IMG/VR virus record: IMGVR_UViG_2816332575_000002
Location: 40,885-104,884 of that record
Source: a virus
Taxonomy: Duplodnaviria; Caudoviricetes
Length of the DNA stretch: 64,000 nt
Direction: 5' to 3' (one strand)
In this document: positions 10,534-64,000 of the stretch, in pieces
Layout: the number at the start of each line of letters is the position of its first letter
How positions within the stretch are numbered: position 1 is the first letter of the stretch
Notes under the pieces: model-generated
The model's input: only the letters and a program-made list of their open reading frames with translations
Told to the model about the DNA's origin: nothing
Database searches by the model: none
Program-made: the position numbers and the translations under genes

Positions 10534-10581
10534 CCGTAGTCCTTACGAAAGGCCAGAAAGCTGGCTTCCCTAACGCCTCCG

Positions 10582-10625
10582 AAGAATCCCTTGTCAGTAT
10601 CTGTGGCAAGGGATTCTTTTATTTG
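10582..10625 (+). terminator. Intrinsic terminator-like hairpin
   Basis: AAGAATCCCTTGTCA...TGGCAAGGGATTCTT followed by TTATTT. Confidence 0.65.
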
Positions 10626-10635
10626 AGGAGTACGT

Positions 10636-10992
10636 ATGCCGACTGCCGAGACGAGCCCGCGGGACACGACCGGCCGCGTGCAGCAGCAGCTCGTAAAGGA
10701 CCGAGAAGTCGCCGAAAAGGAGGCTGCCAAGTCACAGCTCCGCGATGCGCAGGTAGCCGAGGCGGCTCGTGCCGAGCCGGTGGACCTCGCAGCTCCCCAG
10801 GTCGTAGAGGTCGAAGAGTCGCCCGTCGTCGTCAGCGAGAAGCTGTACGAAATGCGGGTCACCGAGGATCTCGAAGACGTCACCATCGGCTACGGAAACG
10901 TATACAACTTCGAGGCAGGTCGTACCTACAAGAACGTGCCCGGCCTGGTCTACAACCACCTCCGCGAAAAGGGCTACGTGTGGGGCGCCTGA
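10636..10992 (+). CDS. Phage hypothetical protein (probable virion/head-associated)
   Basis: GAGGAG RBS; first gene of the structural operon. Confidence 0.7.
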   Translation: MPTAETSPRDTTGRVQQQLVKDREVAEKEAAKSQLRDAQVAEAARAEPVDLAAPQVVEVEESPVVVSEKLYEMRVTEDLEDVTIGYGNVYNFEAGRTYKNVPGLVYNHLREKGYVWGA

Positions 10993-11303
10993 CATCGGTT
11001 GCAGCTGGCCGCCCGTATCAGCTCACGTCTCCCGAGGGGATCGGTGTCGGGTACGGGCGGCTGGAGCCAGGAAGCGTGGTCGATGTCCTTTCCGTGGCGT
11101 CGGCTGGTGTGACCTTCGCTCTTCCCGCCGGCCGTACTTCTCCGCCGCCGCGGCTCATCCGCTACCCCGAGCCCTTCTTCGAGGAGCACTTTGCGCCGTA
11201 CACGCCGCCAGTGATCACGCCGCCCGACCCGGAGCCCGAGCCCAAGCCGCAACCGCCGGAGGAACTGCCCAGCCCGGATGAGATCGCACAGGAGGTGCAG
11301 TGA
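10980..11303 (+). CDS. Phage hypothetical protein, Pro/Glu-rich tail
   Basis: 3' part of ORF 10134-11303; GTG at 10980 overlaps the upstream gene and fills the gap. Confidence 0.55.
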   Translation: MGRLTSVAAGRPYQLTSPEGIGVGYGRLEPGSVVDVLSVASAGVTFALPAGRTSPPPRLIRYPEPFFEEHFAPYTPPVITPPDPEPEPKPQPPEELPSPDEIAQEVQ

Positions 11304-11905
11304 CGGTGCCGTCCTACGTCCCCATCCAGACCAGCGCAGACCTGACGCGCGCCATGGTGGCCTCGCCGGACCTGCCGGCCACAGTGACGGACAGCCTGCA
11401 CACAGCCTGGGCTGCTCGACCGGATCGTGCCTCGATGATGGGCCGTCTGCCGAAAGGTTTCCTCCAGGAGCTGGTGACTTCAGCCTCCACCCCAGAGGGT
11501 CTGGCAGCGCTGCGCACCGAGATTGAGGCGGTACCGGACCGTACGATCACCCGGCACGTGCATCTGCTGACCCGCGATCCCGGCCGAACGGTCACGCTGG
11601 CGACGTTGCCGCAGAGCGAGGTCAGCGCTGACGGCTACCTGCCACAGCTCATGGACCTGGGCGAGGCCGTGGTCGACGACCAGAACCGGGCGACCGTCTC
11701 GAACCTGTCGGAGGTCACTTTCGGGCCACTGCTGCCGGGCCCCGGCACTGCGGTCATCACCGTCACCCATGTCGCCGTCACGCTCACAGCATCGGACGGC
11801 ACCGGCCGGGTCGTCAGCGTCATCGAGCTGGCCGACCGGCACGACATGCGAGCAGGGGAGTCGGTATCCATCCGTGCCGGAGCCCTGAGCTGCGGGGTGG
11901 GCTGA
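11300..11905 (+). CDS. Phage structural protein
   Basis: C-terminal VSNxxEVTF...TVTHVAV...GESVSI pattern seen in small virion proteins; coupled start. Confidence 0.55.
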   Translation: MTVPSYVPIQTSADLTRAMVASPDLPATVTDSLHTAWAARPDRASMMGRLPKGFLQELVTSASTPEGLAALRTEIEAVPDRTITRHVHLLTRDPGRTVTLATLPQSEVSADGYLPQLMDLGEAVVDDQNRATVSNLSEVTFGPLLPGPGTAVITVTHVAVTLTASDGTGRVVSVIELADRHDMRAGESVSIRAGALSCGVG

Positions 11906-12723
11906 TGGTTGACCAGACACACATGCTCGCCCGCGTCCGCTCCCTGCTCGGCGATTTCGGCACGGAGTTCCGCGACGTGCTGACCGGTACAGGCGACCTG
12001 TCCGAGTACGACCTCTCCCAGACGCGCGTCACGGTCACCAAGGCCCTGCTCGTCCAGGAAGGCCAGAGCCGCGAGCTGATCGCCGGCACGGACTACACCC
12101 TGCTCTCCCGAGAAGGCCGACTGCTCTTCCGAGAGCGCCTGGGCCCGCTGCCGCTGGGCGCCGTCGTGATCGTGGAAGGCCGCTCCGGCGGCATGGTCGA
12201 CGACCAAGAGCTGGCCATCCACCTCCAGGACGCCGTGCTCCAGCACTGCTCGGACCGAGTCATCACAGTCCGCTACCGGTCCGCGGAGGGCTTCTACCGG
12301 TACGAGGACGAGCCGGTGACCCTGGCGACGCTGCCGGAGATCGAGGAACTGCCCCTCGCCATCCTGGCAGCCGTCAACTTTCTGTGGGCGGTAGCAACGG
12401 ACGCCTCCATGGAACCCAACATTCATACGGCAGAGGGCACCCACATCGACCGCGGGCAGATATACGCCCAGGTCATGGCGCAGATCGAAAATCTTGAGGC
12501 GCGGTATCGGGACCTGTGTCAGCAGCTCAACGTGGGCCTGTACCGCATCGAAATGGCGACACTGCGCCGCGTCTCTCCGTACAACAACCGCCTCGTGCCC
12601 ATCTTCACGCCGCGCGAGTACGACGACTCTGCCTACCCAACGCGCCAGCTCCCGCCCATCGACCGCCGCAACGAAGACCCCTCTGGCATCGCATCGCCCA
12701 TCATCAGCGGGTTGACCGGATGA
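11905..12723 (+). CDS. Putative head-to-tail adaptor (neck protein)
   Basis: Position upstream of the sheath; function inferred from synteny. Confidence 0.55.
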   Translation: MVDQTHMLARVRSLLGDFGTEFRDVLTGTGDLSEYDLSQTRVTVTKALLVQEGQSRELIAGTDYTLLSREGRLLFRERLGPLPLGAVVIVEGRSGGMVDDQELAIHLQDAVLQHCSDRVITVRYRSAEGFYRYEDEPVTLATLPEIEELPLAILAAVNFLWAVATDASMEPNIHTAEGTHIDRGQIYAQVMAQIENLEARYRDLCQQLNVGLYRIEMATLRRVSPYNNRLVPIFTPREYDDSAYPTRQLPPIDRRNEDPSGIASPIISGLTG

Positions 12724-13259
12724 GGGCCGACTGGAAGCACGGGCGTTTCAGCACCGCCTATCACGCGGCCCGTATCGATGCTGGGCTGCGTGCCTGGCAG
12801 CACCGCAAGGGAGACGTCGTCACGTGGTTCCGGGCCGCGCCGGCGCAGTCCCACGCCCATGACGTATATGACGAGGGCGCAGCTGCTGGCGGCCGGGCCT
12901 ACCATCCACCGATCACGGTGCCAGTGCTGGACGTCTCTCGCGACCAGGGCGCCGTCGAGCGCACCGCGCAGGGCCTGTACCAGGTGGCTCCGCTGTACGT
13001 GACGGCCGCGGCGCGCCAGCTCGCCCGCGTCGGCATCTCCCAGCCGGACATCGACACCCACCAGTACCTGCGGGACTGGATCGGCTACGACGGCCGCCTG
13101 CACCGCATCGACGAACTCCAGGCCCTGGGTCGGCTCCGCCGGCACGACTTCGTGGTCTCGCTGAAGCTCACGGAAATCAAGCCCGACGAAATCACCGCGG
13201 ACACACAGCTCGACGAATACCGGCGCTTCGGCCTGCGCCACATACGCCAGCCACGGTGA
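12720..13259 (+). CDS. Putative head-to-tail stopper (neck protein)
   Basis: ATGA-coupled start at 12720; synteny. Confidence 0.5.
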   Translation: MRADWKHGRFSTAYHAARIDAGLRAWQHRKGDVVTWFRAAPAQSHAHDVYDEGAAAGGRAYHPPITVPVLDVSRDQGAVERTAQGLYQVAPLYVTAAARQLARVGISQPDIDTHQYLRDWIGYDGRLHRIDELQALGRLRRHDFVVSLKLTEIKPDEITADTQLDEYRRFGLRHIRQPR

Positions 13260-13323
13260 GCTAACACCCTGCGCAATACCGGTGTGAATCTTGACCTGAC
13301 GGAATTCCTGAGAGGTCGAATCC

Positions 13324-13932
13324 ATGCCGTGGCTGCTGAATGAAGACGCCGCACTGCGGAAAAAGCTCCAGGGCCTCACCGTGAAAGATGGAGCCCTGGA
13401 GCTTCCCGTCGGCGTGCGCTTCTCCTACCCGGAAAGCGAACTGGCCGACCAGACATTCCCCCTCATCATCCTGGAACGCACGCGAGCCGTCCGTGACCCA
13501 CGCCGGGAGGCCCGGGGCGTGGTGCAACTCGGGTACGCACCAGAAGGCCGCGCGTCTTGGCCTGGCATGGAAGACGGAACGGCCTCTCCGTACTACACGG
13601 ACAACCCGATTCCGTACCGCATCGAGTACCAGGTCAACGTCCTGTGCCGGAAGCAGGCCCACCTCACCGACCTGGTGGCCCGGCTCAGCGCCGTCGACTT
13701 CCTGCCAGTGCGCTTCGGATACCTAGAGGTCCCGGAGGACGGCACGGTCCGCAGCCTCGAACTGGAAGGGCCCGAATTCCACACCGGGTGGGACGAGAAT
13801 CAGAAGCGGCTCGTGACCGCGGTCTACCTCGTCAGCGTCACCTCCGAAGTGCTCGGGACGGTGTCCACGCCCACGCCGGTCAAGAAGGTCATCACCGACC
13901 TGCATGACACCCAACCCCAGTGGCCCGCATAA
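13324..13932 (+). CDS. Putative tail terminator/completion protein
   Basis: Directly precedes the sheath; FPLIIL and PYRIEYQV patterns. Confidence 0.55.
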   Translation: MPWLLNEDAALRKKLQGLTVKDGALELPVGVRFSYPESELADQTFPLIILERTRAVRDPRREARGVVQLGYAPEGRASWPGMEDGTASPYYTDNPIPYRIEYQVNVLCRKQAHLTDLVARLSAVDFLPVRFGYLEVPEDGTVRSLELEGPEFHTGWDENQKRLVTAVYLVSVTSEVLGTVSTPTPVKKVITDLHDTQPQWPA

Positions 13933-13940
13933 GGAGAAGC

Positions 13941-15512
13941 ATGGCGACCACCACCTACAAGCGCCCAGGCATATTCGTCGACGAGACCCTCAACCCGATC
14001 GTGGTGAACGAGCCGCCGGCCGGGGAGTTCGTCGCGGCCTTCGTGGGGGCACACGATTTCGGGCCGTCCAAGCCGACTCTGATCCGGAGCTGGGCCGAAT
14101 TCGTTTCCCTCTACGCCGGATTCAGCGGCGGCATGCTGCCCTTCGCGGTACACCAGTTTTTCAGCAACGGTGGCCGGGCCTGTTACATCGTGCGAGCCGT
14201 CGCGGCTGACGCGAAGACCGCGTCGCTTGTGCTGAAGGACCGCCAGGCCGGCACAGGCGAAAACTCTGGCGCTAAGGACGTGCTGCGACTCGTCGCCACT
14301 GCGGCGGGCACCTTCGCCAACACCATCGCCATCAGCGTGACCGACGCCGGCACCGGACCGGGACGTTTCAACCTGACGGTTAAGGCGGGCGGAGACACTG
14401 CTGGCGGCGCAGTCGAGCGCTACACCGACGTCAGCCTCGACCCCACCGACGCCCGCAATGCGGTCGCGCTCGTCAACGCGCCCCAATCCGGCTCCAAGTT
14501 CGTCACCCTCACCTACCTTGGCCCCACCACCTGGAAGATCGACAATACCCCCGCAGTGACGGTCGACCAGATGCTGGCCGGGGGCACCAACGGCGTTGCG
14601 GCCCCCGACCTTTCGGCGGCTGCCCAGTCGCTGGAATCCACCAACGTCGTCCTGAACATCAACCTTCCCGGAGTGTCCGATACCGCAGTCCTCAATCCGG
14701 TCATCGACTGGTGTGAGCGCTACGGCTATGCCTTCCTCGTCGTCGACAGCCCGCAGATCACCGAGGGCACGCCGACTGAAGTTGCGGTGTCGAAGCTCAA
14801 GGAAATGAGCCCGCTGGTCAACGGAGGAACCACGCCGGCGCCCCTGCGCGCTTCTTCCTACGCTGCCGTCTACGGCCCGTGGATTCAGACCGCCGATCCC
14901 GCAGTGGCGGCTGTTGGTGCGACGCGGCTCCTGCCGCCGGGTGGTGCCCTGCTGGGTCAGTTCGCAAGGTTCGACGTCGACCACGGCCCGCACCGTACGC
15001 CTGCCGGGCAGGACGCCGTTCTCCGAGGGGTGTACAGCGCGCAGTATCGATTCACCGACGCCCAGCTCGACGAGCTGAATGTGGCAGGCATCAACGTCAT
15101 CAGATTCGTACCGAACGCAGGCTATTGCCCGATGGGCGGGCGGACCGTCAAGGCCGGTTACCCGGACCGGTACATCGCCGTACGCCGCTTCCTCATCCAC
15201 GTGCGCAAGCTGCTGGTCGAGTCGACCAACTACGCCGTTTTCCAGCCCAACACCCCGGACCTGTGGGCGTCGCTGACTGCGGTTGTCACTCAGCGGCTTA
15301 CCGAGATGACGCAGGCGGGACAGCTCAAGGGCGGCAGCCCTGAGACGGCTTTCCGGGTGGTGTGCAACGAGACCAACAACTCTGCGCAGAGCGTCGCCAA
15401 CGGCGAAGTCCACCTCGACATCGGCCTTGCGTTGATGCGTCCGGCTGAGTTCATCGCCATCCACATCGGTCAGTGGGAGGGCGGCAGCTCGTCCTCTGAG
15501 GCCCTTCAGTAA
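13941..15512 (+). CDS. Contractile tail sheath protein
   Basis: YKRPGIFVDE, FFSNGG, AAVYGPW, LPP..PAG, GINVIR, YIAVRR, RPAEFI. Confidence 0.95.
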   Translation: MATTTYKRPGIFVDETLNPIVVNEPPAGEFVAAFVGAHDFGPSKPTLIRSWAEFVSLYAGFSGGMLPFAVHQFFSNGGRACYIVRAVAADAKTASLVLKDRQAGTGENSGAKDVLRLVATAAGTFANTIAISVTDAGTGPGRFNLTVKAGGDTAGGAVERYTDVSLDPTDARNAVALVNAPQSGSKFVTLTYLGPTTWKIDNTPAVTVDQMLAGGTNGVAAPDLSAAAQSLESTNVVLNINLPGVSDTAVLNPVIDWCERYGYAFLVVDSPQITEGTPTEVAVSKLKEMSPLVNGGTTPAPLRASSYAAVYGPWIQTADPAVAAVGATRLLPPGGALLGQFARFDVDHGPHRTPAGQDAVLRGVYSAQYRFTDAQLDELNVAGINVIRFVPNAGYCPMGGRTVKAGYPDRYIAVRRFLIHVRKLLVESTNYAVFQPNTPDLWASLTAVVTQRLTEMTQAGQLKGGSPETAFRVVCNETNNSAQSVANGEVHLDIGLALMRPAEFIAIHIGQWEGGSSSSEALQ

Positions 15513-15524
15513 AGGAGTTGGGGC

Positions 15525-16103
15525 ATGGCAGGTAAGACTAGGGCGACGGTTGAGCAGAAGTCCAGCCTCGCCTCGATAGCAACAGATCCTCTTCGCTCGT
15601 TCAAGTTTCACGTCCAGATATCCGGCCCGCAGGGGCTTCAGGGTGCCTATCCGAAGCTCGGCTTCATGGCGGTTTCCGGGTTGAGCATGACCACGGATGT
15701 TATCGCGTACCGGACCGGTGGAATGAATGTCTCGACCCAGAAGCTCCCGGGGCAGAGTGACTTCAGTCCCATCACGCTGTCCAAGGGGCTGTGCCCAGGA
15801 GATCAGCAGCTTCTTGACTGGATGGGTCAGCTCTTCAATGTGATGCAGGGCGTCGGTAAGACTTACGACACCAATACCGATTTCCGGGCCACGGTCGACA
15901 TCATGCTGATTGAGCATCCGGTCACCAAGTCCACGGCCAAGGTTCAGGCGGTGTGGCGGCTGTACAACGCTTGGCCCACCTCCGTTGCCTTCGGTGATTT
16001 GGACGCCGGCCAGAACATGTACGCCGTCCATCAGATGACCCTCGCGCACGAGGGATTCGATTTCAAGGTCGCCCCGAACGCTAAGTCCAGCGTCACACTC
16101 TAA
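15525..16103 (+). CDS. Tail tube protein (T4 gp19-like)
   Basis: DPLRSFKF, GFxxVSGL, YRTGG, KLPG, ITLSKG, NAWP, LAHEG. Confidence 0.92.
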   Translation: MAGKTRATVEQKSSLASIATDPLRSFKFHVQISGPQGLQGAYPKLGFMAVSGLSMTTDVIAYRTGGMNVSTQKLPGQSDFSPITLSKGLCPGDQQLLDWMGQLFNVMQGVGKTYDTNTDFRATVDIMLIEHPVTKSTAKVQAVWRLYNAWPTSVAFGDLDAGQNMYAVHQMTLAHEGFDFKVAPNAKSSVTL

Positions 16104-16112
16104 GGAAACGCT

Positions 16113-16979
16113 ATGACCACCGAAAACCTCGCCTACGACTGGACTTACGACCAGGCCGCCGCTCCGGCCATCGACCCTGCCTCCGACACCGCAGCAGCCA
16201 ACCGTGCAATGCAGCAGGTTCTGGCGGACAGTACGGGGCCGGCACCGAAGCCGCCTTTCCCCGGCAGTACGGCAGTTGTGCTCCCGGTGGACCTGGACAT
16301 CGACGGGCAGTCCGTGACCAGCGCCCGCGTACGGGAGCTGACCGGCGCCGACGAAGAAGCCCTCGCCGCAGTGCCACGCGCCTCGCTGGAGTTCTTCGAC
16401 ACCATCCTGCGCCGCGGAGTCACCGAGCTGGGCTCTGCCGCCCCTACCGAGCAGCAGCTCCAGGACATGCTCGTCGGCGACCGCGACAGCCTGCTCCTGG
16501 CCGTGCGCTGCGCAACCTTCGGGCCCAGCCTGGAGCTGCACGGCGTGAGTTGTCCCGGCTGTGACGAGCGCATGGACGTCACTATCGACCTGTCCACGGT
16601 CGAGTGCCGCGGCCTGCCGGAGGGCGAGCACACCGTGCGGCTGCGGGACGGTCGAATCGTGCACCTACGGTTTCCGACTGGCGCGGATCAGAAGTACATC
16701 CTCGCGGAGAAGAACGCCAGTCCGGCGCGCGTGAATTCCAGGCTTCTGGAGCGCTGCATGCGCTATATCAGCACCACTGAGCAGGCCCCGGCGGCGCTGG
16801 TGGAGGACGGCGCTGCCCTCGCCCAGAGCCTGGGGATTGCCGATCGCCGCACGCTGCTGATGTACCTCGCCGACCATGCTCCCGGCCCGCAGCTTGCCGA
16901 CCTGTCAGTGGAGCACGACGGATGCGGGGAGGAGGTTCCGCTGCCGCTCTCGGTGGCGGACATCTTTCTCGATCTCTGA
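16113..16979 (+). CDS. Tail assembly chaperone / T4 gp26-like hub chaperone
   Basis: VRELTGADEE, GDRDxLL, CPGC, FPTGADQ; lies between tube and tape measure. Confidence 0.75.
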   Translation: MTTENLAYDWTYDQAAAPAIDPASDTAAANRAMQQVLADSTGPAPKPPFPGSTAVVLPVDLDIDGQSVTSARVRELTGADEEALAAVPRASLEFFDTILRRGVTELGSAAPTEQQLQDMLVGDRDSLLLAVRCATFGPSLELHGVSCPGCDERMDVTIDLSTVECRGLPEGEHTVRLRDGRIVHLRFPTGADQKYILAEKNASPARVNSRLLERCMRYISTTEQAPAALVEDGAALAQSLGIADRRTLLMYLADHAPGPQLADLSVEHDGCGEEVPLPLSVADIFLDL

Positions 16980-17136
16980 TATCGAAGCGACGCTCCTCGA
17001 CACGGAATCGCTCGTGTTCGCCTATCGCTGGCCACCGAGCGAAATCAAGGCCCTGACCGTCCGGGAGCGGCAGTACTGGCGCGACCTCGCGCTCTGGAAC
17101 AAGGAACGAAAGGAGGCACTGAATGGCGTCCAGTGA
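16968..17136 (+). CDS. Start-less C-terminal chaperone extension (probable +1 frameshift product)
   Basis: YRWPPSEIKALTVRERQYW pattern; no nearby start codon or RBS; +1 frame relative to the upstream gene. Confidence 0.6.
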
Positions 17137-20100
17137 ACGCAGCGAACCGAACATCGCTGGACGCCTGCTTGGCGTATCCAGGCTGGAGCACGAGGTCGAT
17201 GACCTGGAGCGCCAGATCAGAGTGCTCGGCCAGAACGTGAGCCGGTTGAACCGGGCCTTCGGTGCACTGCCGACCGGGCTGGGTTCAGGCATGGGGGTCG
17301 CCGGGGCTTTTCCCGCGGCCAACCGGCCGACACCGGCCGGGACGGCACAAGCCACCTCCAATCCCAGCGGCACTGGCACTGCCGTTCAGCAGGCGGCAGC
17401 CATCATGCGGCAGCGCATGGAGGCGCGGCGAGCCCAGCAGAACGAAGCGGTCACTCGCGCCGCGGAGCAGCGTCGCCAGCAGGAGGAGGAGCGACGCCGG
17501 CAACGGGACCAGGCCCAGCGTGACCGCCAGGAGGCCAATGCCCGTCACGCTGCCGCCGCCGAGGCTCAGCAGCAGGCAATGCGTGAGGCGCAGGAACGGG
17601 CACGGCAGGATCGGGAGCGCGCAGATGCCAGTGCCCGCGCCCGGATCACCGCTCGGCTGGGCGGAGCCGGCGGGGTTCCGCCGCGGCCTACGGTTCCGCC
17701 GACCGTAGGAGCGGGCCAGCCCGGCCGCGGCGGCCGAGTCATTGACGGGGAGCGGCTGGCGTTTGGAGCGGGGCAGCTCGCCAGTCGAGCGGTTTCGTGG
17801 GGCGCTGGAAAGGTCCGGTCGCGCGTCGACCACATGACGGACCAGGCGTACGAGATGGATCGCTACGCCGCGTTCGCCTACAGCTCCTGGGCTGACCCGA
17901 AGGCTGGCTACTGGTCGCAGAAGAATCGTTTCCGCAACGACGCGATGCAGTCCTCTACCGCGCTCTCGACGGAGGACCTGAACACCGGTCTGTTCGAGGT
18001 CGACCGGCGACTCGGTATGGGCCGCAGCGAGGCTGAGCGAAGGCTGCTGCACCAGCAGGCATCGGGGTACGCGCTGCTCGATCCGACGATGGGTGTCGCT
18101 GATTCCGCGCGGATGATGACGGCGATGTACACGCCGCAGGCGTCCATGCTCTACCAGGCGATGGGCCTCGGCCCGACCATCGGTGCCGGCGGCAAGCGGA
18201 TATCACAGGGCCAGCTCAACCAGAACCTTCTGGACCGGGTTTTCCAGCGCGGCTACCGGCTGAAAAATGTGCTGGCTGCCTCCGAGCAGGGCGGGTCGCT
18301 GCGAACCACGCTGGAGGGGCAGGCCCGGCAGCTCGGCATGGGCCAGGACTGGGTGGAAAACCGGCTGACCCAGATCCAATCCCAGGCCCGGTGGCGCGAG
18401 CAGACCGGCGGTTCGGTCGACGAGTACGAGCGGCTGCTGCGCGATGCCGGCGGCACGGGGGAGAAAGCGGAGCAGGCCCGCGAGAGGCTGCAAAAGGGCG
18501 GCCTCGACGTCGACAACCTCCTCAATCAGAAGAAGCGCCGGGAGGGCGAGGAGCGCCGTCACGACAGCCAGATGATGGATGCCTTCGCCCCGGCAATGCA
18601 GGCCGCCACCGATGTCGTCATTGATTTCAAAGAGGCGCTGAACGCCATTTTGGAGCTGCCCGGCGTCAAGCACGTTGTCGGCGGCTACCAGGGAGTGGAT
18701 GCAGGTACCGGGGGACGACTGACGGGTGCGCTGAAGGGCGCGGGGGTCGGTGCGCTGACCGGCCTGGCGGCAGGCAGCGTTATCCCCGGCATTGGCAATG
18801 GCGTTGGCGCCTTGGCCGGCGGCATCATCGGCGGTATCGGCGGCCTGATCGGCGGAGGCGCGGCTGGTGGTGGCTCGATCGGTGGGGGAGCGGCCGGAGG
18901 TTCGGGCGGCTCGAAGACGCGGGCGAACTTGCATCAGGGCAGTGCCAACTCCGCTATCAAGGCGGCGCTGTCCCAGATCGGTGTCGACTACTCGTGGGGC
19001 GGCGGCGGGCCGGAAGGCCCATCCCGTGGCTTTGCGCAGGGCGCGAGAACGGTTGGCTTCGACTGCTCCAGCCTGATGCAGTACGCCTTCAGCAAGGTCG
19101 GGGTCCGGCTGGGGCGTACGACTTACGAGCAGCTGAAGGCGGGAAAGGGCGTAGCGTACAAGGACCGCCGTCCTGGGGACTTGATGTTCCCCAACAGCGG
19201 GCATGTGGTGATGTACCTCGGCAACGGCAAAATTGTCCACGCGCCGCGCACCGGGCAGAAAATCCGTGTCGACTCGGAAGACCATTTCGGGAAGTACATG
19301 GCGGTCCGCCGAGTGGTCGCCGGCGGAGGGGACACTTTCTCGTCGGACGAGCCGGGATCGACCTCCTCGGAGGCGGGCGCAGGAAACGACAACTCCGCGG
19401 CGACCGGAGCCAGTACGACCGGCACCATCACCAATGCGTACGGCTCCGTGAACGAGGTGGAGGCGCTGGCTGCCGCTCTTTCCGCAGGAGGCCGGGGAGC
19501 GGCCGGGGCAGGCGGAGGCAGCAAGAAGAGCGGCGAGGATGGCAGGGATGACCCAGCCGGTGCTGATGTGGACACCGGCGGATATTCCTGGGGCGCTATC
19601 AACGGCCGTTACACGAAGGTGCCGGCGCCGCCCGGCTGGGTCAAGGCCGCGATTCAGCGTGGCATGGCGGCGAAGGGCGTCTCGGGTGCTGCCTGGGCGC
19701 GGGGCCTGACCACCATCGCCTACCGGGAATCGGGCTACCGTCGCGACGCTCGAAACGACTGGGACTCCAATGCCAAGAACGGCGATCCGTCGGTGGGCCT
19801 GTTCCAGGTGATCGGCTCGACGTTTAAGGCGTACCGGGCGAAGTCGCTGCCCAATGACCAAACGGACCCGGCAGCATCGGCGGCTGCCGCTATCGGCTGG
19901 ATCAAGGCCCGCTACGGAAGCATCGGCAAGGTCCAGCAGGCTGACCCCAATAAGCCCAGCAAGGGCTATGAGATCGGCGCTTGGGACCTGCCGGAGGATG
20001 AGATCACGCAGGTCCACAAGGGCGAGATGATCGTGCCCAAGCGGACCGCGCAGACGATCCGCAACGCCCTGATGCAGGAATCCATCCCGGTCAAGTCCAC

Positions 20101-20302: not shown

Positions 20303-20303
20303 G

Positions 20304-21017: not shown

Positions 21018-21024
21018 GAGACGC

Positions 21025-55246: not shown

Positions 55247-55258
55247 CACTCACGATTA

Positions 55259-55303: not shown

Positions 55304-55321
55304 GTTCGCGAAGGGAAAAAC

Positions 55322-56428
55322 ATGACCCACACTGAGCACAACTTCACCGCACTGGAGATATGCGCCGGAGCCGGAGGGCAGGCACTCGGACTGCACCAGG
55401 CAGGCTTCCGCCACCACGCACTGATCGAGATCGACAAGCACGCGTGCGAGGCGCAGCGCTAACGCCTGCCCCTGCGCACGCGTGCTTACCACGCGTGCGA
55501 GACACTGAAGCTCAACGTCACGGAGAAGAATGGCTGGGACGACTGCCGGATCATCACAGCTGACCTGACGAAGCTCGACCCAGCAGAGCTGGCCCTGGAA
55601 CCCGGCACGCTCGACCTGCTGGCCGGTGGAGTGCCGTGCCCGCCCTTCTCAGCCGCGGGCAAGCAGCTGGGCCCGGATGACGAGCGCGATCTCTTCCCCA
55701 CAATGCTCGACCTGGTGAGCTACCTGAAGCCCAAGGCCGTCATGATCGAGAATGTACGCGGCCTGCTCGAACCGCCGCGGAAGTTCCAGCGCTACCGCGA
55801 CGATGTGATCAAGACCCGCCTCCTTGCCGAGGGCTACGTCATCTGCGATTGGCGAGTCGTCAAGGCGTGCGATTACGGAGTACCTCAGCTCAGGCCGCGC
55901 TCGATCCTCATAGCCATGCAGCCGCAGTTCGCTGCCCATTTCACCTGGCCGACGCCCGAGCGGGGCGAGCAGGTGACGGTGGCGAAGGCGCTCGCGCCAA
56001 CGATGAGGAAGCGCTTCGGCGACTCATCGGCTGGCAAGAAGGCGTACGCGCGCTGGCACAAAGCCGCCAGCACAGGCATAGCCCCCACCCTCGTGGGCGG
56101 GTCCAAGAAGCATGGAGGCGCCGACCTCGGCCCCACCCGGGCACGGGCCGCCTGGCGCAAACTCGGAATCGACGCCCGCAGCGTCGCCGATGACCCCGAG
56201 GCCACGAAGAACTCGGCCCGTGACCTCTACAGCACGGACAAGGACGGCCAGCCGATCGGCCCGAGACTGACCGTCGCTCAAGCCGCGATCATCCAAGGCT
56301 TCCCCGCCCACTGGCGTTTCGCTGGCCGTAAGACAACGGCCTACCGACAGGTCGGTAACGCCTTCCCGCCGCCGGTCGCCCGAGCTGTCGGCAAGCACAT
56401 CATCGCTGCTCTGGAGAAGGGGAACTAG
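55322..56428 (+). pseudogene. C5-cytosine DNA methyltransferase (M.NaeI/M.NgoMIV-like), interrupted by a 51-bp insertion
   Basis: Motif I ICAGAGG upstream of in-frame TAA 55460-62; GVPCPPFS, ENVRG, QxRxR, GGSKKHGGADLGPTR and QVGNA downstream in the same frame. Confidence 0.85.
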
Positions 56429-56451
56429 TTCCGCTGTACTGAGCGGCTAAC

Positions 56452-56482
56452 AGTGCCCCGGCTAACTCCAGGCCGGGGCACT
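56452..56482. terminator. Hairpin after the methyltransferase
   Basis: AGTGCCCCGGC...GCCGGGGCACT. Confidence 0.55.
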
Positions 56483-56548
56483 TCCTTACCCTCAAATTAA
56501 CTTCGGAGGGAGAGCCGAAGCGCCCTGTCCCCAACGAATGGGAACTGT

Positions 56549-57124
56549 ATGCGCAAGCTCGCCCTCGCCCTGATCCCCGCCGTCCTCGTCACCGCTGCCA
56601 CCACCGAGCAGGCCGCGGCACGAGGAACCAGCTCCACGCGATACCACATGGTCACGACGACGAAGACCACGCTGGCCGCCCGGACCTACACCATCCGCTC
56701 TGGCGACACCCTCAGCAGCATCGCCCAGGACCAGCTCGGTGACGCCTCCAAGTGGCAGGCTCTCTACCGCGACAACCGCGCCACCATCGGCCCCAACCCC
56801 AGCCTGATCTATCCAGGTCAGAAGCTGCGGCTCGCCGTCGGCACGGCTCCGAAGCCCAAGCCCACCCCGCACGAACGTGGCAATTCCACCACCACGTGGG
56901 ACCGCCTCGCCCAGTGCGAATCCGGCGGCAATTGGCACATCAACACCAGCAACGGCTTCTACGGCGGCCTCCAGTTCACCCTCACGACCTGGCGGGCCTT
57001 CGGCGGCACGGGAATGCCGCACAACGCCAGCAAGGCCGAGCAGATCCGAATCGCCGAAAAGGCGCTTCACGGTCAGGGACCGGGCGCCTGGCCCGTCTGC
57101 TCCTACAAGGCAGGTATGCGTTAG
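56549..57124 (+). CDS. rpf: Secreted resuscitation-promoting factor (signal peptide + LysM + Rpf domain)
   Basis: WDRLAQCESGGNWxINTxNGFYGGLQF..TW..QGPGAWPVC; LysM YTIRSGDTLSSIA. Confidence 0.92.
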   Translation: MRKLALALIPAVLVTAATTEQAAARGTSSTRYHMVTTTKTTLAARTYTIRSGDTLSSIAQDQLGDASKWQALYRDNRATIGPNPSLIYPGQKLRLAVGTAPKPKPTPHERGNSTTTWDRLAQCESGGNWHINTSNGFYGGLQFTLTTWRAFGGTGMPHNASKAEQIRIAEKALHGQGPGAWPVCSYKAGMR

Positions 57125-57160
57125 TAGACTCACACCACTGACGGCCGTGGGCTTTCAGCA

Positions 57161-57203
57161 GAGAAGCCAGGTGACCTGGGGCAGACCGGGAGCCTGGCTT
57201 CTC
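57161..57203. terminator. Hairpin after rpf
   Basis: GAGAAGCCAGG...CCTGGCTTCTC. Confidence 0.5.
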
Positions 57204-57277
57204 GCATTCACGCTAACAGCCTTCTCGCGGCAGCACTTAATTTGGGGTCACCATAAAGAAAGACACCAGGAGACCCC

Positions 57278-57793
57278 GTGGCAGAAGAATTCATCCGGCT
57301 GCTGATGTGCAAGGACTGCAAGTCCATCGAGGAGCTACCTGACCACGAGGGAACTCCGCACGAGGACCACCTCCTGGGAAACCTGGTACGCCGCCACCGT
57401 TTCCCGGACGGCAACCCGCATACGGCCCACCCCCTGGTACGCATAGCCAAGAAGAACTGGGGTAACGCCGAACACCGGCAGGCCATCCTCACCAAGCTCA
57501 ACGAGGCCGTCGCCAACGGCGGCTCCGACGGCCTGGGAGCCGAGTTCTACGGACTCAAGGACACCTTCCGCGAAGACGCCTTGTCCTGCTGGAAGAAGCA
57601 CAACCGCACCCTCGACTGCGGGGACTTCCGAAGCAAGCGCGTCATGCTCACCCCCGGCACCGCCACCGAACGCAAGGCCGCCGGCCTCCCCAAGTACCGC
57701 TCCGCCAAGGACCGCTACCTCTGCGATTTCTGCCCGGTCATGAACCGCGTCCGTGCTGACCACTACGACAAGACCGCCGCCAAGGAGAGCTGA
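57278..57793 (+). CDS. Phage Zn-binding hypothetical protein
   Basis: CxxC, H..H, C..H..C, YLCDFCP. Confidence 0.7.
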   Translation: MAEEFIRLLMCKDCKSIEELPDHEGTPHEDHLLGNLVRRHRFPDGNPHTAHPLVRIAKKNWGNAEHRQAILTKLNEAVANGGSDGLGAEFYGLKDTFREDALSCWKKHNRTLDCGDFRSKRVMLTPGTATERKAAGLPKYRSAKDRYLCDFCPVMNRVRADHYDKTAAKES

Positions 57794-58026
57794 TGCCGAA
57801 GCCCAGCATCGGACGCATAGTCCACTACCGGTCTTACGGAACTCCCGGTGGGGAGCACCGACCAGCATGTCGCTTCGCCATCATCACTGAGACCCACGAC
57901 GACGAACGTGCCAGCCTTGTCGTCTTCAACCCCAACGGTCTCTACTTCGACCGCGGCTGCCCCTACGACGAGGCCGGCCAGCTCGGAGGCACCTGGCACT
58001 GGCCCGAGCGCATCAAGGAGAGCTGA
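57793..58026 (+). CDS. Small actinophage hypothetical protein
   Basis: PSIGRIVHY...GTWHWP. Confidence 0.7.
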   Translation: MPKPSIGRIVHYRSYGTPGGEHRPACRFAIITETHDDERASLVVFNPNGLYFDRGCPYDEAGQLGGTWHWPERIKES

Positions 58027-58337
58027 TGCCCACAGCGAAGAAGACCGCGGCCAAGAAGCCGAGCGCGGGGGAGACCGCAGCCAAGGGCGGTAAGTGGACC
58101 GGCGGCACGACCAAAAAGGGCTACGGCTCCGTACGCGATCCCAAGACCGGCAAGGTGACCTACGCCCACCGCCTGGCCGCGGAGAAGAAGCTGGGCCGCA
58201 AGCTGCGCTCGGACGAAACCGTTGACCACAAGAACGGCGACTACACCGACAACCGGCCCAGCAACCTGCGTGTCGTATCCCGAGCCGAAAACACCCGCCT
58301 CCGCCACCAGCGAGACAAGAAGAAGGGCAATAAGTGA
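58026..58337 (+). CDS. HNH endonuclease
   Basis: AHR..VDHKNG..DNRPSNL..N. Confidence 0.85.
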   Translation: MPTAKKTAAKKPSAGETAAKGGKWTGGTTKKGYGSVRDPKTGKVTYAHRLAAEKKLGRKLRSDETVDHKNGDYTDNRPSNLRVVSRAENTRLRHQRDKKKGNK

Positions 58338-58540
58338 GTGCCGCGGAACACATTTTAGGGTTCTGGGTTGGCATAGCCATCTACGAGACGTACCTGCTCA
58401 TCAGCCCTCACTTCGGTGACACCTTCACAGAGCGTTGGGCAGCCTGGAAGGAGAGGCATAGCCGCACGGGAGTGATCATCTTCTACGCTGCGTGTCTCGG
58501 GCTTCCCACAGCCTTACTACTTCGTGCTTTGACCACTTGA
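58334..58540 (+). CDS. Small two-TM protein (two TTA codons)
   Basis: Coupled start; two hydrophobic helices. Confidence 0.55.
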   Translation: MSAAEHILGFWVGIAIYETYLLISPHFGDTFTERWAAWKERHSRTGVIIFYAACLGLPTALLLRALTT

Positions 58541-58591
58541 TCCCACGGCGCTACTAACAGTTCTTCTCGGGCCACTCATAGCTTCAGTCCT

Positions 58592-59572
58592 ATGAGTGGC
58601 CCCAACGCTTTCTACGAACGACTCACTGAGTCCCTCGCCGACATCGCCGACCCGGAGCAGGGTGGCAGCGGGTACTTCTCCGAGCCATCTGACACGCTCG
58701 ACCCGAACCTTTTTGACGGCACGCACATCAGGGCAGACGTACGCGACTGGATTCTCCGCACCCTGAGCGACTTCTTCATGGTCACCCCAGGATTCAACCA
58801 GTGGGCCGAAGTCTGGCTCGCCGGGTCCGGCATCACCTACCAATGGGCAGCCGACCGAGGCAACGGAGACCTTGACGTACTCATCGGTGTCGACTTCCCC
58901 CAGTTCGCTCACTACAACGACCAGTACGCCGGACTCACCTCCGAAGAGGTAGCCAAGCTCGTCAACGAGTCACTGCGCAGCGCGCTATGGCCCACCACGG
59001 CCACCGTCCAGATCGGGACAGGCACCTACGAGGTCACCTTCTACTGGAACTCGGCGCACGGCGTGAAGGACATCAAGGCCATCAACCCCTACGCGGCGTA
59101 CTCCCTCACCCGCGACGAGTGGACCATCGAGCCGCCCAAGTTGCCCACCGATCCCCGCTCCAGTTACCCCGACGAGTACGCCGAAGCAGCAACACGCGAC
59201 GAGCAGCAGGCCAAGCGCCTGCTCGACCGGTACCGCAACCTCTCCAGCAGCCTCTCCGCCCTCGCCAAGGGCAGCCCCGGCTGGATGAACGCCGCGGCCG
59301 AACTGCGCCAGGTCATCGCCGAGGCCACCACCCTCTACGACGGCATCCACCTCGGCCGGCGCCAGGCATTCAGCCCCCAAGGCAGCGGCTACGCCGATTT
59401 CAACAACTACCGGTGGCAGGCCGCCAAGGAACGAGGCACTGCCCAGACACTGCGCCAGCTCAAGGAAGTCGGGGTCACAGCGCAACAGTCCACCGATGTT
59501 GCCCTGTACGGACAGGTCATCGACGACGCCCAGACCGCCCTGCTCAAGGCCGCACTGTGGGGCCGGCGTTGA
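58592..59572 (+). CDS. Pol-beta-superfamily nucleotidyltransferase
   Basis: LAGSG..Y....GDLDVLI; third acidic residue in YEVTFY. Confidence 0.75.
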   Translation: MSGPNAFYERLTESLADIADPEQGGSGYFSEPSDTLDPNLFDGTHIRADVRDWILRTLSDFFMVTPGFNQWAEVWLAGSGITYQWAADRGNGDLDVLIGVDFPQFAHYNDQYAGLTSEEVAKLVNESLRSALWPTTATVQIGTGTYEVTFYWNSAHGVKDIKAINPYAAYSLTRDEWTIEPPKLPTDPRSSYPDEYAEAATRDEQQAKRLLDRYRNLSSSLSALAKGSPGWMNAAAELRQVIAEATTLYDGIHLGRRQAFSPQGSGYADFNNYRWQAAKERGTAQTLRQLKEVGVTAQQSTDVALYGQVIDDAQTALLKAALWGRR

Positions 59573-60060
59573 ACATCGCGATCACCATCGACGGAGTCCT
59601 GCGCAACCGCGAGACCGGTGGCGCCATCAACGCCGGCAAGGCGCTCTACCAGGCTCTTGCCCTCGACCACGCGCTGTACCTCCTCACCGAGGACCGCGAC
59701 CCGCCTGCCACTCAGCAGTGGCTCGCCTTCAACGGCTTCACAGCGCACATGCGGATCGTCAGCCCACCGCAGACCTCAAGAGCTGTAAAGCCGGCCGACG
59801 TGCGCCTGGAGTGCCTCGGACATCTCACCGGCACCGGCATGAAGGTGGACCTGGTCGTCGAGCCTGACCCTGCCGTCAGCGTCAAGCTGCTGGCCCGCGG
59901 CTACCCCGTAGCAACGCTCACGCTGCCGCACTTCGCCAAGCCGGAATGGCGCCCGGACTACCAACAGGGCCTGCGCCCCTGGTCCGAACTGGTCGCAGAG
60001 ACCGAAGCCCAGGCCCACGCTCACGCCACTGATCCCCGCCGCACCGCCGAGCCTCTCTAG
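59569..60060 (+). CDS. HAD-like protein lacking the first Asp
   Basis: TTGA-coupled; IAITIDGVLR, LLT, WL. Confidence 0.6.
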   Translation: MNIAITIDGVLRNRETGGAINAGKALYQALALDHALYLLTEDRDPPATQQWLAFNGFTAHMRIVSPPQTSRAVKPADVRLECLGHLTGTGMKVDLVVEPDPAVSVKLLARGYPVATLTLPHFAKPEWRPDYQQGLRPWSELVAETEAQAHAHATDPRRTAEPL

Positions 60061-60067
60061 GACAGCC

Positions 60068-61351
60068 ATGCACATCTACCAGGCGGGTACCGAATTCCCC
60101 GTCTACCGTCGCCTGCTCACCGCTGAAGGGTGGCTTGACCAGAGCCTGAGCTACTGGGGCCTACGCAAGCGGACCAAGTTCACCAAGCCCTTTCGTATCG
60201 ACGAGCACTTCGACGCCGGCGCACACGTACTGCTTGACTCCGGCACCTACGCCCTCAACAACAGCCCAGGATCGGGGCCGGAGGACGAGGAACTGCCGGG
60301 CATCGCCGACCACTACTACGACCAGGTCGTAGACCCGAACCTGCACCGGATCGACTTCTTCGTGGAGTTCGACGCACTACGCCTCGACCCCACCTACCAG
60401 ATGAAGCGCCTGCCCTGGCTTGAAGAACGGCGCCACAAAGCCGTCATCGTCTGGCACCCCGGACAGGATCTGGACGCCATCTGCGAAGCCTGGCCCAACG
60501 TCGCCGTCCCCAAGGACGCCATCGACGACCACCTCACGCAGCGCCTGGTGCGCCTTGCCAAGGCCGGCGTCCGACTCTTCGGCCTCGGTATCACCAAGCC
60601 CGAGCTGATGCAGAAGGTCCCCTTCCACGCCGTCACCAGTACGAGCTGGCTCTCCCCGTCCCAGTTCGGGGACACCATCTGGTACTCCGGCGGACAGCTA
60701 CGCCGGTACCCGAAGAAGATGAAGGACCGTGCGCGGGCACGACATCGGCAGGAGTTCATCGACGCTGGGTACGACATCGCCCTCGTCGACCAGGACGACA
60801 GCACCGAGGTTCTCCGGCTGTCCCTCCACGCCTGGCGCGCCTTCATGCAGCAGCTCAACGGCAGGGGAGTAACTACTACCCCCGAAACGGCAACTGAGGA
60901 AAACCCGGATCGGGCCCCAGAGCCAGTTGATACCCGTGCTGTTGAGGAGCGGCACGACGGAGTTACTACGCTCGCCGCTTGGTACCAGCCGGCGCCTCCG
61001 GTCATCCGAACCAAAGAGCAGCTCGCCGACGCCGAAGCAACGGTTCTGGAGCTGCAACTCGGCCGCGTCTTCAAACGAGCCCGCGCTGAAGAGTCTTACG
61101 GCGACACCGAGCTGGACCCTGTCCTGTCTGAGGAAATCGACAGGTGGAGCAAGCTCGCGGCCAGCAAGCGCAAGACCGACGAGGCATCCGTCAGCATCTC
61201 CATCAAGGCCAGCCAGAAGGGCGCCGCGGAGACCGGACTCATCTCACGGCTCTTCGGAAGCAATGACGCCCAACCCCAGCGTGCTCTTCCCGCGCCCGCT
61301 GCCGAAGCCACTGACCAGACCATCGTCGACGCTGACGTAATTGAGGACTGA
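60068..61351 (+). CDS. TGT/DpdA-like TIM-barrel protein with helical C-terminus
   Basis: LLDSGTY, VEFD, IVWH, FGLG, STSW. Confidence 0.55.
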   Translation: MHIYQAGTEFPVYRRLLTAEGWLDQSLSYWGLRKRTKFTKPFRIDEHFDAGAHVLLDSGTYALNNSPGSGPEDEELPGIADHYYDQVVDPNLHRIDFFVEFDALRLDPTYQMKRLPWLEERRHKAVIVWHPGQDLDAICEAWPNVAVPKDAIDDHLTQRLVRLAKAGVRLFGLGITKPELMQKVPFHAVTSTSWLSPSQFGDTIWYSGGQLRRYPKKMKDRARARHRQEFIDAGYDIALVDQDDSTEVLRLSLHAWRAFMQQLNGRGVTTTPETATEENPDRAPEPVDTRAVEERHDGVTTLAAWYQPAPPVIRTKEQLADAEATVLELQLGRVFKRARAEESYGDTELDPVLSEEIDRWSKLAASKRKTDEASVSISIKASQKGAAETGLISRLFGSNDAQPQRALPAPAAEATDQTIVDADVIED

Positions 61352-61733: not shown

Positions 61734-62099
61734 CTACTTCGGGCACCCTTCGTGTTCCGCGGTGCAGGCGTGTACCCCGAGCGCGGTGACCCCTCCCGGC
61801 GTCCTGGCCAATACAGCCATGCCAGCGGCCAGCGCCGAAAGTACTCCTGTCGCGCGGGTCTTTCCCTTCGTCGGATACTGGAAAGCGTCGGCCTTGTACG
61901 CGATCACATACGCGGCCCTCTCCGCCATGGGAGCCAGCTCCGCGTCCGACTTTCCTTGCTGCTCGGTTATGAAAAGCGGGATCAGACCGAGCAACCCCAG
62001 CGCGACGTTCTCCCAGAAGTAGTCGCGTTCTACGTCCTCGTCGTAGACGCTCGTGGTGTAACCCACCGGCCCGTGATCTTTCGCCGCTGCTTCGGACAC
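61734..62099 (-). CDS. Actinomycete hypothetical protein
   Basis: AGGAGG RBS before GTG 62099; PGGVTxLGxHxC..HxxC. Confidence 0.65.
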   Translation of the reverse strand: MSEAAAKDHGPVGYTTSVYDEDVERDYFWENVALGLLGLIPLFITEQQGKSDAELAPMAERAAYVIAYKADAFQYPTKGKTRATGVLSALAAGMAVLARTPGGVTALGVHACTAEHEGCPK

Positions 62100-62105
62100 T
62101 GTCTC

Positions 62106-62150
62106 TCCTCCTGTTTTCGGGCGTGAAAAAGGGCCCCGCATCGGGGGCCC
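62106..62150 (-). repeat. Terminator-plus-RBS module, copy 2
   Basis: 24/25 identity to 61665-61689, with a different hairpin. Confidence 0.7.
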
Positions 62151-62216
62151 TAACTGTTTCTTTGTGCGCTCCATAGGCTCGCCTCAGATTCCGAAATCCG
62201 GGGCCGAGGAGGGCGA

Positions 62217-62402
62217 ATGGAAGACCAGGGTATGCCAGAGGTAGTGTCGCTGTCTGCGGTGCGCGAGGGCATCTCGCCAGAAGAGCAAGAGTGCTGGGAC
62301 GGGTTTTGGTCGGTGCTGGGCCGGGCGGCCTACCGCGTCTGGCAAGAAGCAGGCAACCCGGCCGTTGGAAATCAGGAGACTAGTTCGAACGGGTCCGCTT
62401 GA
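62217..62402 (+). CDS. Small protein convergent with the integrase
   Basis: GAGGAGG RBS; 31-bp 3' overlap with the integrase. Confidence 0.45.
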   Translation: MEDQGMPEVVSLSAVREGISPEEQECWDGFWSVLGRAAYRVWQEAGNPAVGNQETSSNGSA

Positions 62403-64000
62403 GCCTGCGCGTCCCACTTCGCGATTATCTCGATTCGGGCTCGATCGCCTCGGCCCGTCGCCTTATACACCTTGATGTGATCGATGACCGTCTTGAGTGC
62501 ATTGCGCTTCTCGTGATTGGTTAGTTTGGGCCATAGGTCCCTCAGGTCGAGGAGAGCCGCGCTGTTCGGTATGCGGTTGCTGGAAATAGACTCGCGGAGA
62601 AGGTCGGCCCGGGACTCTAGGGTGTCTCTGTCGGCTTCGAACTCTTCTTTCTTGTCGGAGTAGGTTTCCGCGTCGATCAAACCTTCCAGCCAGCCGTCGG
62701 CGAGCTTACTCAGCTTCGTTTTTATCTTCGTAAGGTCCGTCTCTATAAGTGTCAGTTTCGATTCCGCGCTGTCTGCTGCTGTCATGCGTTGCAATGCCAA
62801 TTCACCCATGTCGCTAGCCTTCACTCTCTCGTCTAACCACTCGTAAACGAGGCGCTCGACCCTGTCAAGTGAGACCGCGGCGCCTGTGCACGAGCGGTTC
62901 GGGACGTGAGGGCAGCGCATAATCTTTCGGTAGCCGCCCTTAGTGCGCATGAGGCTAGCGGCGACCATCTTGGAGTGACACGCGGTGTTGTCTATGCGTG
63001 TTCCCTGACAGCGAAGGAGTCCAGAAACTGCGTACTTAGGGGCGCGATCATGCCCGCCTTTAGCTTTGCGACGCTTCCTCTTATACGCCTCCCATACCTC
63101 TTCTTCGATGATGGCTTTGTGCTTACCCTTGATCCAGATGTCGAATGACTCTGGTTTGTTGTTCTTGGGCTTGGATTCTCGAAGTTCTTCGCTGCGGGCC
63201 CGGATGTACCCGGCGGCGAAACCGGTATCCATGACCTGAAGCAGCGTGGTTGCCGTGAGGTAGTTCCCTTCGGTGGAACGAATGCCTAGCTTCACGCTGT
63301 CTTTAACTATGGACGCGACAGACTCCTCGGAGTAGTGAAGGTTTAGTTTCTTGTCCTTCAATCCTAGGTAGCGGTAGTACGCCGCTCGGTAGAAAGGCTC
63401 GATGACTGAGTTGGGCTGAAGAATACCTTCGCACGTCTTGCATCGAACAAACGCTCTCGGGTTGTCCTCGCTTCGACGGCAATCAGGGCAGCGGTCGTAT
63501 CCGAACCGCTCACGTCCGTTGTGTGGTCTACCACTCTTGCGACGGCGTTCGTGAGTCTCCTTCCAGCTATCCCCGATGAGGTTTGTTTGTAGCTCGGAGA
63601 TGAGAAGCATTTGGTCGCGGCCGAATTTTCCGGTCGTCGTCTTGGTGTCGAAGTGTTCAGTGGCTGCGAGGAGTTCGCCACCAACTTCTTCGAGAATCCT
63701 GATGTGGCGTTTAGATAGCTCGATGTTGCGGCCAAAGCGAGACCACTTCCAAACGAGCACACACTCAGCTTCTCCAGCTTCTACTCGCTGGATGATGCGC
63801 ATGATTTTGCGCTTGGCGAAGTCGCGGCCGGTCTTATCCAAGTCGTATACGACGTCAACGATGTCGATACCTTGTTGTGTAGCGAATGGCAGGCAAGAGG
63901 CTAGTTGCTGCTGTGGGCTGTAGCCTTCCTCCTTCTCCTGCGAGACGCGGATGTAGACGATCGCGCGCCGCCGGAGGCGGGGCAGTGACTTTCGGGACAT
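62372..64000 (-). CDS. Large serine recombinase (integrase)
   Basis: YIRVS, SRFGR, recombinase domain, GLLRC..C Zn ribbon, coiled coil; lower GC than its neighbours. Confidence 0.93.
   Translation of the reverse strand: MSRKSLPRLRRRAIVYIRVSQEKEEGYSPQQQLASCLPFATQQGIDIVDVVYDLDKTGRDFAKRKIMRIIQRVEAGEAECVLVWKWSRFGRNIELSKRHIRILEEVGGELLAATEHFDTKTTTGKFGRDQMLLISELQTNLIGDSWKETHERRRKSGRPHNGRERFGYDRCPDCRRSEDNPRAFVRCKTCEGILQPNSVIEPFYRAAYYRYLGLKDKKLNLHYSEESVASIVKDSVKLGIRSTEGNYLTATTLLQVMDTGFAAGYIRARSEELRESKPKNNKPESFDIWIKGKHKAIIEEEVWEAYKRKRRKAKGGHDRAPKYAVSGLLRCQGTRIDNTACHSKMVAASLMRTKGGYRKIMRCPHVPNRSCTGAAVSLDRVERLVYEWLDERVKASDMGELALQRMTAADSAESKLTLIETDLTKIKTKLSKLADGWLEGLIDAETYSDKKEEFEADRDTLESRADLLRESISSNRIPNSAALLDLRDLWPKLTNHEKRNALKTVIDHIKVYKATGRGDRARIEIIAKWDAQAQADPFELVS

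Follow-up and report, generated by a model that had tools for sequence, protein, structure and literature searches.

Head genes of an apparently headless myophage locus lie upstream of it, beyond a cargo island in the virion operon

The 64,000-nucleotide stretch of viral DNA analysed here (the window) carries the neck, contractile tail, replication, lysis and integrase genes of a myophage, preceded by a block of genes of other kinds, and contains no terminase, portal or capsid gene. The question that it raises is whether the element is really headless. The window corresponds to G000:C4:67618-131617, i.e. part of the 173,471-bp contig C4 of a 9.6-Mb draft genome in 292 contigs; it has a GC content of 0.62-0.73 and nearly all of its genes are on the + strand. 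Positions below are those of the window unless prefixed C4, with negative positions lying upstream of its first letter. Our analysis indicates that the window is very probably the neck-to-integrase part (the right-hand 60%) of one structurally complete, integrated temperate myophage of ~106.6 kb, with its heads encoded upstream.

The window itself does lack head genes, as the initial annotation of this DNA had said. A PHROGs scan of 40 open reading frames (ORFs) in positions 10,570-64,000 returned no terminase, portal or capsid family as the best match of any of them, and the same was true of the 10 ORFs from the block that precedes the neck. Around 15 further ORFs were left out of the scan; these cannot encode the large terminase subunit (TerL), the portal or the major capsid protein (MCP) because each is shorter than 150 aa. 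Two families from the 'head and packaging' category were rejected as head genes: phrog_2810 ('virion structural protein') is a secondary match on the tape-measure-like protein, and phrog_1224, described as an endolysin, is a secondary match on the endolysin. There was also no match within the window to TerL, portal, scaffold or MCP of GiJojo (PP725410), a 115-kb BRock-like Streptomyces myophage with a sequenced virion genome, in tblastn searches, or to portal (PF05133), terminase (PF17289) and MCP (phrog_1357) families in six-frame scans of all 292 contigs.

When 53 GiJojo proteins were compared with the whole genome by tblastn, the head genes turned up on the window's own contig and strand, 2.2-10.4 kb before its first letter, and GiJojo head proteins matched only C4:57201-65374 (-10,416 to -2,243). 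TerL is at -10416 to -8875 (C4:57201-58742, + strand), with a reading frame open across 517 codons, a GiJojo match at C4:57201-58736 with 54% identity and hidden Markov model (HMM) matches to phrog_2 (6.1e-30), Terminase_6N and Terminase_6C. The portal gene, which has an 11-nt frame-breaking gap after codon 33, is at -6529 to -4809 (C4:61088-62808, +) and is matched by GiJojo at C4:61091-62778 and by the HMMs phrog_64 (8.1e-42) and PF05133. The scaffold gene is at -4819 to -4037 (C4:62798-63580, +; tblastn match C4:63086-63574) and the MCP gene is at -3868 to -2240 (C4:63749-65377, +; tblastn match C4:63749-65374), the latter in three exons (C4:63749-63903, 64201-64972 and 65294-65377), of which the second matches phrog_1357 (1.5e-46). 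On C4 the family scans matched only 58173-58673, 61207-62532 and 64220-64933. The presence, order and orientation of these genes are direct observations, as are the open frames of TerL, the portal body, the scaffold and all three MCP exons. The initial annotation had proposed a headless, tailocin-like or tail-donor element and had suggested searching the flanks for TerL, portal and MCP; that search finds TerL, portal, scaffold and MCP at -10,416 to -2,240, and the headless reading fails. Elsewhere in the genome there are a second, SPP1-type portal (G000:C40:100019-101191, the only portal match besides that on C4), a second sheath homologue (G000:C14:3559-5136, 32-41% identical to the GiJojo sheath) and a baseplate J homologue (G000:C10:4425-6221), which are parts of other contractile or prophage elements.

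Head and tail genes belong to the same insertion. An 8-bp core is present at both ends of a single ~106.6-kb insertion, as attL at -42554 to -42547 (C4:25063-25070) and as attR at 64070-64077 (C4:131687-131694), the latter 70 nt beyond the start of the serine integrase gene and just outside the window. The left host flank was matched in 30 of the 41 genomes searched (query genome included), and at the empty site a match to C4:23916-25070 runs into a match to C4:131683-132283, with a 12-nt overlap, in 8/8 relatives' loci fetched. Since the flanks are directly joined in all eight, the insertion is ~106.6 kb long and holds the heads, the island described below, and the tail, replication, lysis and integrase genes; its boundaries as a single insertion are observed directly. 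In the one relative checked, the host gene at the empty site is a single 634-aa ORF across the joined region. The integration site is inside this host ORF of ~634 aa, which has 82-86% DNA identity across genus relatives, and the prophage adds a 51-codon new tail to the left fragment of the interrupted ORF. A recent deletion of the head genes, another of the explanations first offered, is refuted by the intact-looking head genes inside the same integrated element; the remaining one, head genes displaced outside the window, was correct, the displacement being due to a 12.9-kb island inserted in the capsid-neck spacer.

Integration can be ascribed to the large serine recombinase at 62372..64000 (- strand; 542 aa; phrog_95, 1.9e-74), which contains the Pfam domains Resolvase (1.4e-21) and Recombinase (1.5e-06), and whose ATG is the final three bases of the window. 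The arrangement is like that of phiC31, i.e. a recombinase of more than 500 aa with Resolvase and Recombinase domains, an att site directly upstream of int, a short shared core and integration inside a host ORF. It differs in that attB is another host gene, no recombination directionality factor was identified and the phage is a 107-kb myophage, whereas phiC31 is a 41-kb siphophage. The prophage also contains a tyrosine recombinase gene at -14585 to -13443 (C4:53032-54174), ahead of the MazG and terminase genes. A related prophage, G175, has a homologue of it (38% identity) at the same place, and no homologue of the serine integrase was found in the 120 kb fetched of the G175 prophage locus.

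The order of the genes across the whole insertion can be compared with that of a virion genome. The sheath and PolA proteins have the same six best phage records, at 42-50% identity (GiJojo, pSt2308, LuckySocke, Alone3 and BRock twice), and by sequence the element is related to the BRock/GiJojo group of Streptomyces phages. In GiJojo the order is terminase g61, portal g69, scaffold g70, MCP g71, g72-g75, tail terminator g79, sheath g80 and so on to DpdA g181. Homologues of g72 through g178 were found by tblastn in GiJojo order across 10,636-59,566, so that colinearity with the virion genome is directly observed. GiJojo, BRock, LuckySocke, Alone3 and pSt2308 (112-116 kb) have in common with the element a gene order running from terminase to DpdA, at 30-66% identity: terminase, portal, scaffold, MCP, neck, sheath, tube and baseplate, then DnaC/DnaB/primase, PolA, ribonucleotide reductase (RNR), RecA, WhiB, Cas4, lysin and DpdA. 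The element differs from GiJojo in being integrated and in encoding both a serine integrase and a tyrosine recombinase, whereas GiJojo has no integrase among its 209 annotated features. It also lacks the g76-g78 tailspike block, and further differences are its 12.9-kb island, its portal gap and the two introns in MCP. For the 26-kb left arm no homologue was found among 36 further GiJojo proteins tried, except for g58. A literature search on BRock-like Streptomyces phages gave, among the papers it covered, none on lifestyle.

Related prophages were obtained by seeking TerL homologues in 300 genus genomes, of which six were positive, and seven prophages were compared. The whole prophages of G175 and G148 are colinear with the element from TerL to DpdA. 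Identity to the G175 prophage is 74% for TerL, 59% for the portal and 70% for MCP on the head side of the island, and 58% for the g74 homologue, 54% for the sheath, 75% for the tube and 57% for PolA beyond it; the similar divergence on the two sides would count for one element rather than two. The nearest relative is 54-75% identical in protein, and synonymous sites would be saturated. Sheath homologues of at least 45% identity were present in exactly the six genomes carrying TerL, and the other 33 sheath matches, which are only 31-41% identical, belong on this evidence to other elements.

These comparisons bear on the proposal of a truly headless, self-replicating, tail-only element, whether tailocin-like or a tail donor for capsid-forming satellites, whose sole support is that no head genes occur inside the 64-kb window. 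Against it, the head genes are in the same att-bounded insertion, on the same strand and in the order of the GiJojo virion genome, and none of the relatives searched has a tail module without a terminase. The headless layout does not recur in the independent genomes compared: MCP adjoins the neck in six of the seven related prophages, and the seventh lacks tails, not heads. This seventh prophage (G042:C21:1-38127) is a remnant in which TerL, portal, scaffold and MCP exons 1-2 are followed by homologues of 57278-61351, the neck, tail, replication and lysis genes having been deleted, and it thus shows the reverse of the headless layout first proposed. R-type tailocins and other headless contractile elements also have a contractile sheath-tube-baseplate module and a lysis gene, but the element here holds in addition TerL, portal, scaffold, MCP, a full replisome and an integrase. 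Such elements are defined by having no head genes; as head genes were found here, the element is not a headless contractile element, and, unless the contig is chimeric, the proposal of a tail-only element is almost certainly wrong.

The headless appearance was the result of where the window begins, combined with a cargo insert of unusual size. The island occupies C4:65378-78252 (-2239 to 10635; 12,875 bp) between the capsid stop at C4:65377 and the first neck gene at C4:78253, and its in-window part is 1..10635. The initial annotation had placed 10 kb of non-phage genes ahead of the neck, and positions 1-10,533 do hold non-structural genes: the island encodes two methyltransferases, one of them PCMT-like, helix-turn-helix (HTH) regulators, an NAD-binding dehydrogenase and a HATPase protein, all Streptomyces-type, and several unknowns. 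In six of the seven related prophages the capsid-neck spacing is 93-115 nt and the island is absent from that site. In 88 of the 300 genus genomes, scattered chromosomal loci resemble island positions 1120-6100 (65-76% DNA identity), and the remaining island sequence has no DNA match in these genomes. We considered and rejected three descriptions of the island. It does not look like a transposon or integrative element, as the island ORFs scanned include no recognised transposase or integrase and terminal repeats are absent (the longest direct or inverted repeats are 38 nt at 71-74% identity, none of them at the ends). It does not match a known defence system, as PADLOC gave only a generic methyltransferase similarity to mad2 and one HTH match. 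Nor is it host-like in composition, with a length-weighted GC content at third codon positions of 0.81, compared with 0.80-0.83 for the phage and 0.90-0.92 for the host flanks; its total GC is slightly above that of the rest of the prophage.

The edge genes of the island are the PCMT-like gene and a gene for a 243-aa phrog_30088 protein; the G175 prophage has homologues of the two in an island of ~6 kb that separates TerL from portal (12780-15685 of the fetched locus). The G042:C21 remnant has a ~9.6-kb gap between TerL and portal, in the same place as the G175 island. From its sequence, the island reads as phage cargo that has grown, and not as host chromosome caught between two phage fragments. 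The same observations bear on the idea that the island was misjoined into the prophage by the assembler, for which it can be said that the genome is a 292-contig draft. Such an artefact would need two chimeric joins that fell precisely in an intergenic spacer and kept the phage sequence on either side undamaged and in one orientation; there are no repeats at the island ends, and both edge genes have homologues inside the G175 head module. We therefore give a misassembly very little credence.

Production of heads by this prophage would depend on events at the RNA level, the first of which concerns the capsid. Two paralogous group I introns without ORFs interrupt the MCP gene (297 nt, C4:63904-64200, and 321 nt, C4:64973-65293) and are near-identical in their cores; the first scores 56.9 bits against Rfam RF00028, above the gathering cut-off of 50. 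Their removal at 5' splice sites preceded by U and 3' splice sites preceded by G gives a 336-aa MCP frame that is identical to GiJojo MCP at 224 of 340 positions and reproduces the GiJojo residues exactly at both junctions. In the G175 and G042:C21 prophages the MCP gene has an intron of divergent sequence, placed 16 nt before the first intron site here; the other five related prophages have no MCP intron. Cluster J mycobacteriophages reportedly carry group I introns in capsid and tail genes, and these are likewise small, ORF-less and located in structural genes of an actinophage; the present case differs in having two paralogous introns in one capsid gene and in its host lineage.

The second event concerns the portal. 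The first 33 codons of the gene end in GAG-GAG-TAG, and the frame resumes at a GAG 11 nt later (C4:61088-61200, -6529 to -6418), such that a ribosome hopping the gap would make a product matching the GiJojo residues. Identity to GiJojo is 81% over the 32 residues that precede the break and 51% over the rest of the portal, which suggests that this short piece is still under selection. Analogous inserts, TTA-led and 3-5 nt long, occur nearby in the portal genes of five of the seven relatives, and the codons flanking them are identical or synonymous except in G149; the G202 portal has three TTA-led micro-inserts. In the tblastn comparisons, no frame change between high-scoring segment pairs was seen in any other GiJojo-homologous gene. 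With its matched GAG codons around a TAG-led 11-nt insert, the portal gap looks like a site of programmed translational bypassing, of which T4 gene 60 is a known case. Another analogy is the terminase of Streptomyces phage Hau3, for which UUA-triggered short bypassing has been proposed and, so far as that account goes, given its first experimental support (PMC10732093). [quoted passage not shown] The insert here differs from that described for Hau3 in being in the portal gene instead of the terminase, in its length of 11 nt and in being TAG-led and not UUA-led. Together, the introns and the portal gap would make head production conditional on RNA-level events, which is unlike general decay.

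Several observations weigh against the reading of a structurally complete, working temperate phage. The portal frame is broken after codon 33, and if this is a plain frameshift there would be no full-length portal. The capsid mRNA would need two predicted splicing events, and intron 2 scores 47.9 bits (E 1.4e-09), 2.1 below the RF00028 gathering score. Only this genome has the island between capsid and neck, its left-hand genes are antisense to the late operon, and no promoter-like sites were found in it, an arrangement that does not account for expression of the neck and tail genes past the island; three terminator-like sites were found at the island edges, no more than the 4.1 expected by chance. 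Continuity from capsid to neck across the island junctions is taken from a draft assembly. No tRNA genes were found by ARAGORN in C4:27618-151617, compared with dozens in GiJojo; the large tRNA cluster upstream of the terminase that marks BRock/GiJojo-like myophages is therefore missing. No small terminase or prohead protease was identified, although no search was aimed at the protease and the GiJojo head module annotates neither. Whether the prophage would still make infectious headed particles we consider evenly balanced.

These points lead to a different explanation, in which the prophage is structurally complete but functionally decayed: the portal has a plain frameshift, the island blocks late transcription, and at most tails are made, so that the element would be headless only functionally. 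The in-frame TAG at the portal break and the absence of the island from the capsid-neck site in 6/6 intact relatives are in agreement with this, as is the fact that the family decays by deletion, the G042:C21 remnant jumping from MCP exon 2 to homologues of 57278 onwards. However, apart from the portal gap the head genes have open frames (TerL, portal body, scaffold and each MCP exon), the residues before the portal break are better conserved relative to GiJojo than the rest of that protein, analogous inserts with matching or synonymous flanking codons are found in most relatives, the experiments described for the Hau3 terminase (PMC10732093) support the bypassing of such inserts, and the other GiJojo-homologous genes are free of frame changes. 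We regard functional decay as possible, somewhat short of probable.

The genes within the window agree with a complete phage whose neck-to-integrase part it represents, and the tail, replication, endolysin and integrase genes first annotated there were recovered by the PHROGs and Pfam scan of the 40 ORFs. The neck or head-tail joining genes and the tail terminator (10636..13932, +) were recognised by tblastn to GiJojo g72-g75 and g79 at 34-45% identity, with the g79 homologue at 13324-13932 (+); the PHROGs scan gave no family match for any of them. The contractile tail module (13920..31843, +; PHROGs, Pfam and GiJojo tblastn) contains the sheath (13920-15512; phrog_23, 8.4e-50), the tube (15525-16103; phrog_4542, 8.1e-35), a g82 homologue, a 1059-aa tape-measure-like protein (17123-20302), minor tail proteins, a spike (22441-24597; Pfam Phage_base_V) and, from PHROGs, a baseplate wedge (24590-24994), a baseplate J-like protein (25061-26575) and fibres, including a fibre-like protein at 27414-30134, all of these on the + strand.

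The replication and recombination module (33919..51650, +; PHROGs and GiJojo tblastn) comprises, on the + strand and assigned by PHROGs, a DnaC-like protein (33919-34686), DnaB (34724-36004), an SNF2-like helicase (36982-38616), PolA (41025-43016; 2.7e-118), RNR (43385-45316), a RecA/UvsX-like protein (45666-46760), a Cas4-like exonuclease (47778-49193) and RuvC (51072-51650), together with primase, resolvases, WhiB and HNH genes; the DnaC, DnaB, SNF2-like and RecA-like assignments agree with those made at the outset. Between WhiB and the Cas4-like gene, a 166-aa ORF at 47560-48060 is a homologue (36%) of the GiJojo g54 HNH endonuclease, and given this ORF the start of the 471-aa Cas4 ORF has probably been called too early. 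The region from lysis to DpdA (53724..61351, +; PHROGs and GiJojo tblastn) contains the endolysin (53724-55025, +; PHROGs, 9.9e-121), a DNA methyltransferase, a transglycosylase-like protein, the g178 homologue and a DpdA-like transglycosylase (60,068-61,258, +), which is the g181 homologue by tblastn.

We propose the following course of events for the complete temperate myophage. The large serine recombinase would have inserted the phage into the host gene, and an island of regulator, methyltransferase and accessory genes would have landed in the ~100-nt capsid-neck spacer. On induction, the element is predicted to excise and to replicate with its own replisome. Heads and tails would then be made, provided that the capsid mRNA undergoes two group I splicings and that ribosomes hop or shift frame over a short stretch of the portal mRNA to yield a full-length portal. 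The island may also split the virion genes into two separately controlled units, and with the splicing and the hop this could permit a facultative tailocin mode, i.e. tails without heads in some conditions by an otherwise complete temperate phage; this suggestion is taken from gene layout and we consider it very unlikely.

The element is thus a new temperate member of a known myophage group, with an unusual cargo island inside its virion operon. For a group of large Streptomyces myophages in whose annotated representative no integrase is found, it provides a temperate relative in integrated form, with its att sites and its empty site mapped. Of more interest, in an element that is otherwise useful but ordinary, are the introns of the capsid gene and the gap in the portal gene. 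The island in the middle of the virion operon, and those elsewhere in the head modules of its relatives, indicate that this lineage tolerates cargo in places that are usually considered closed.

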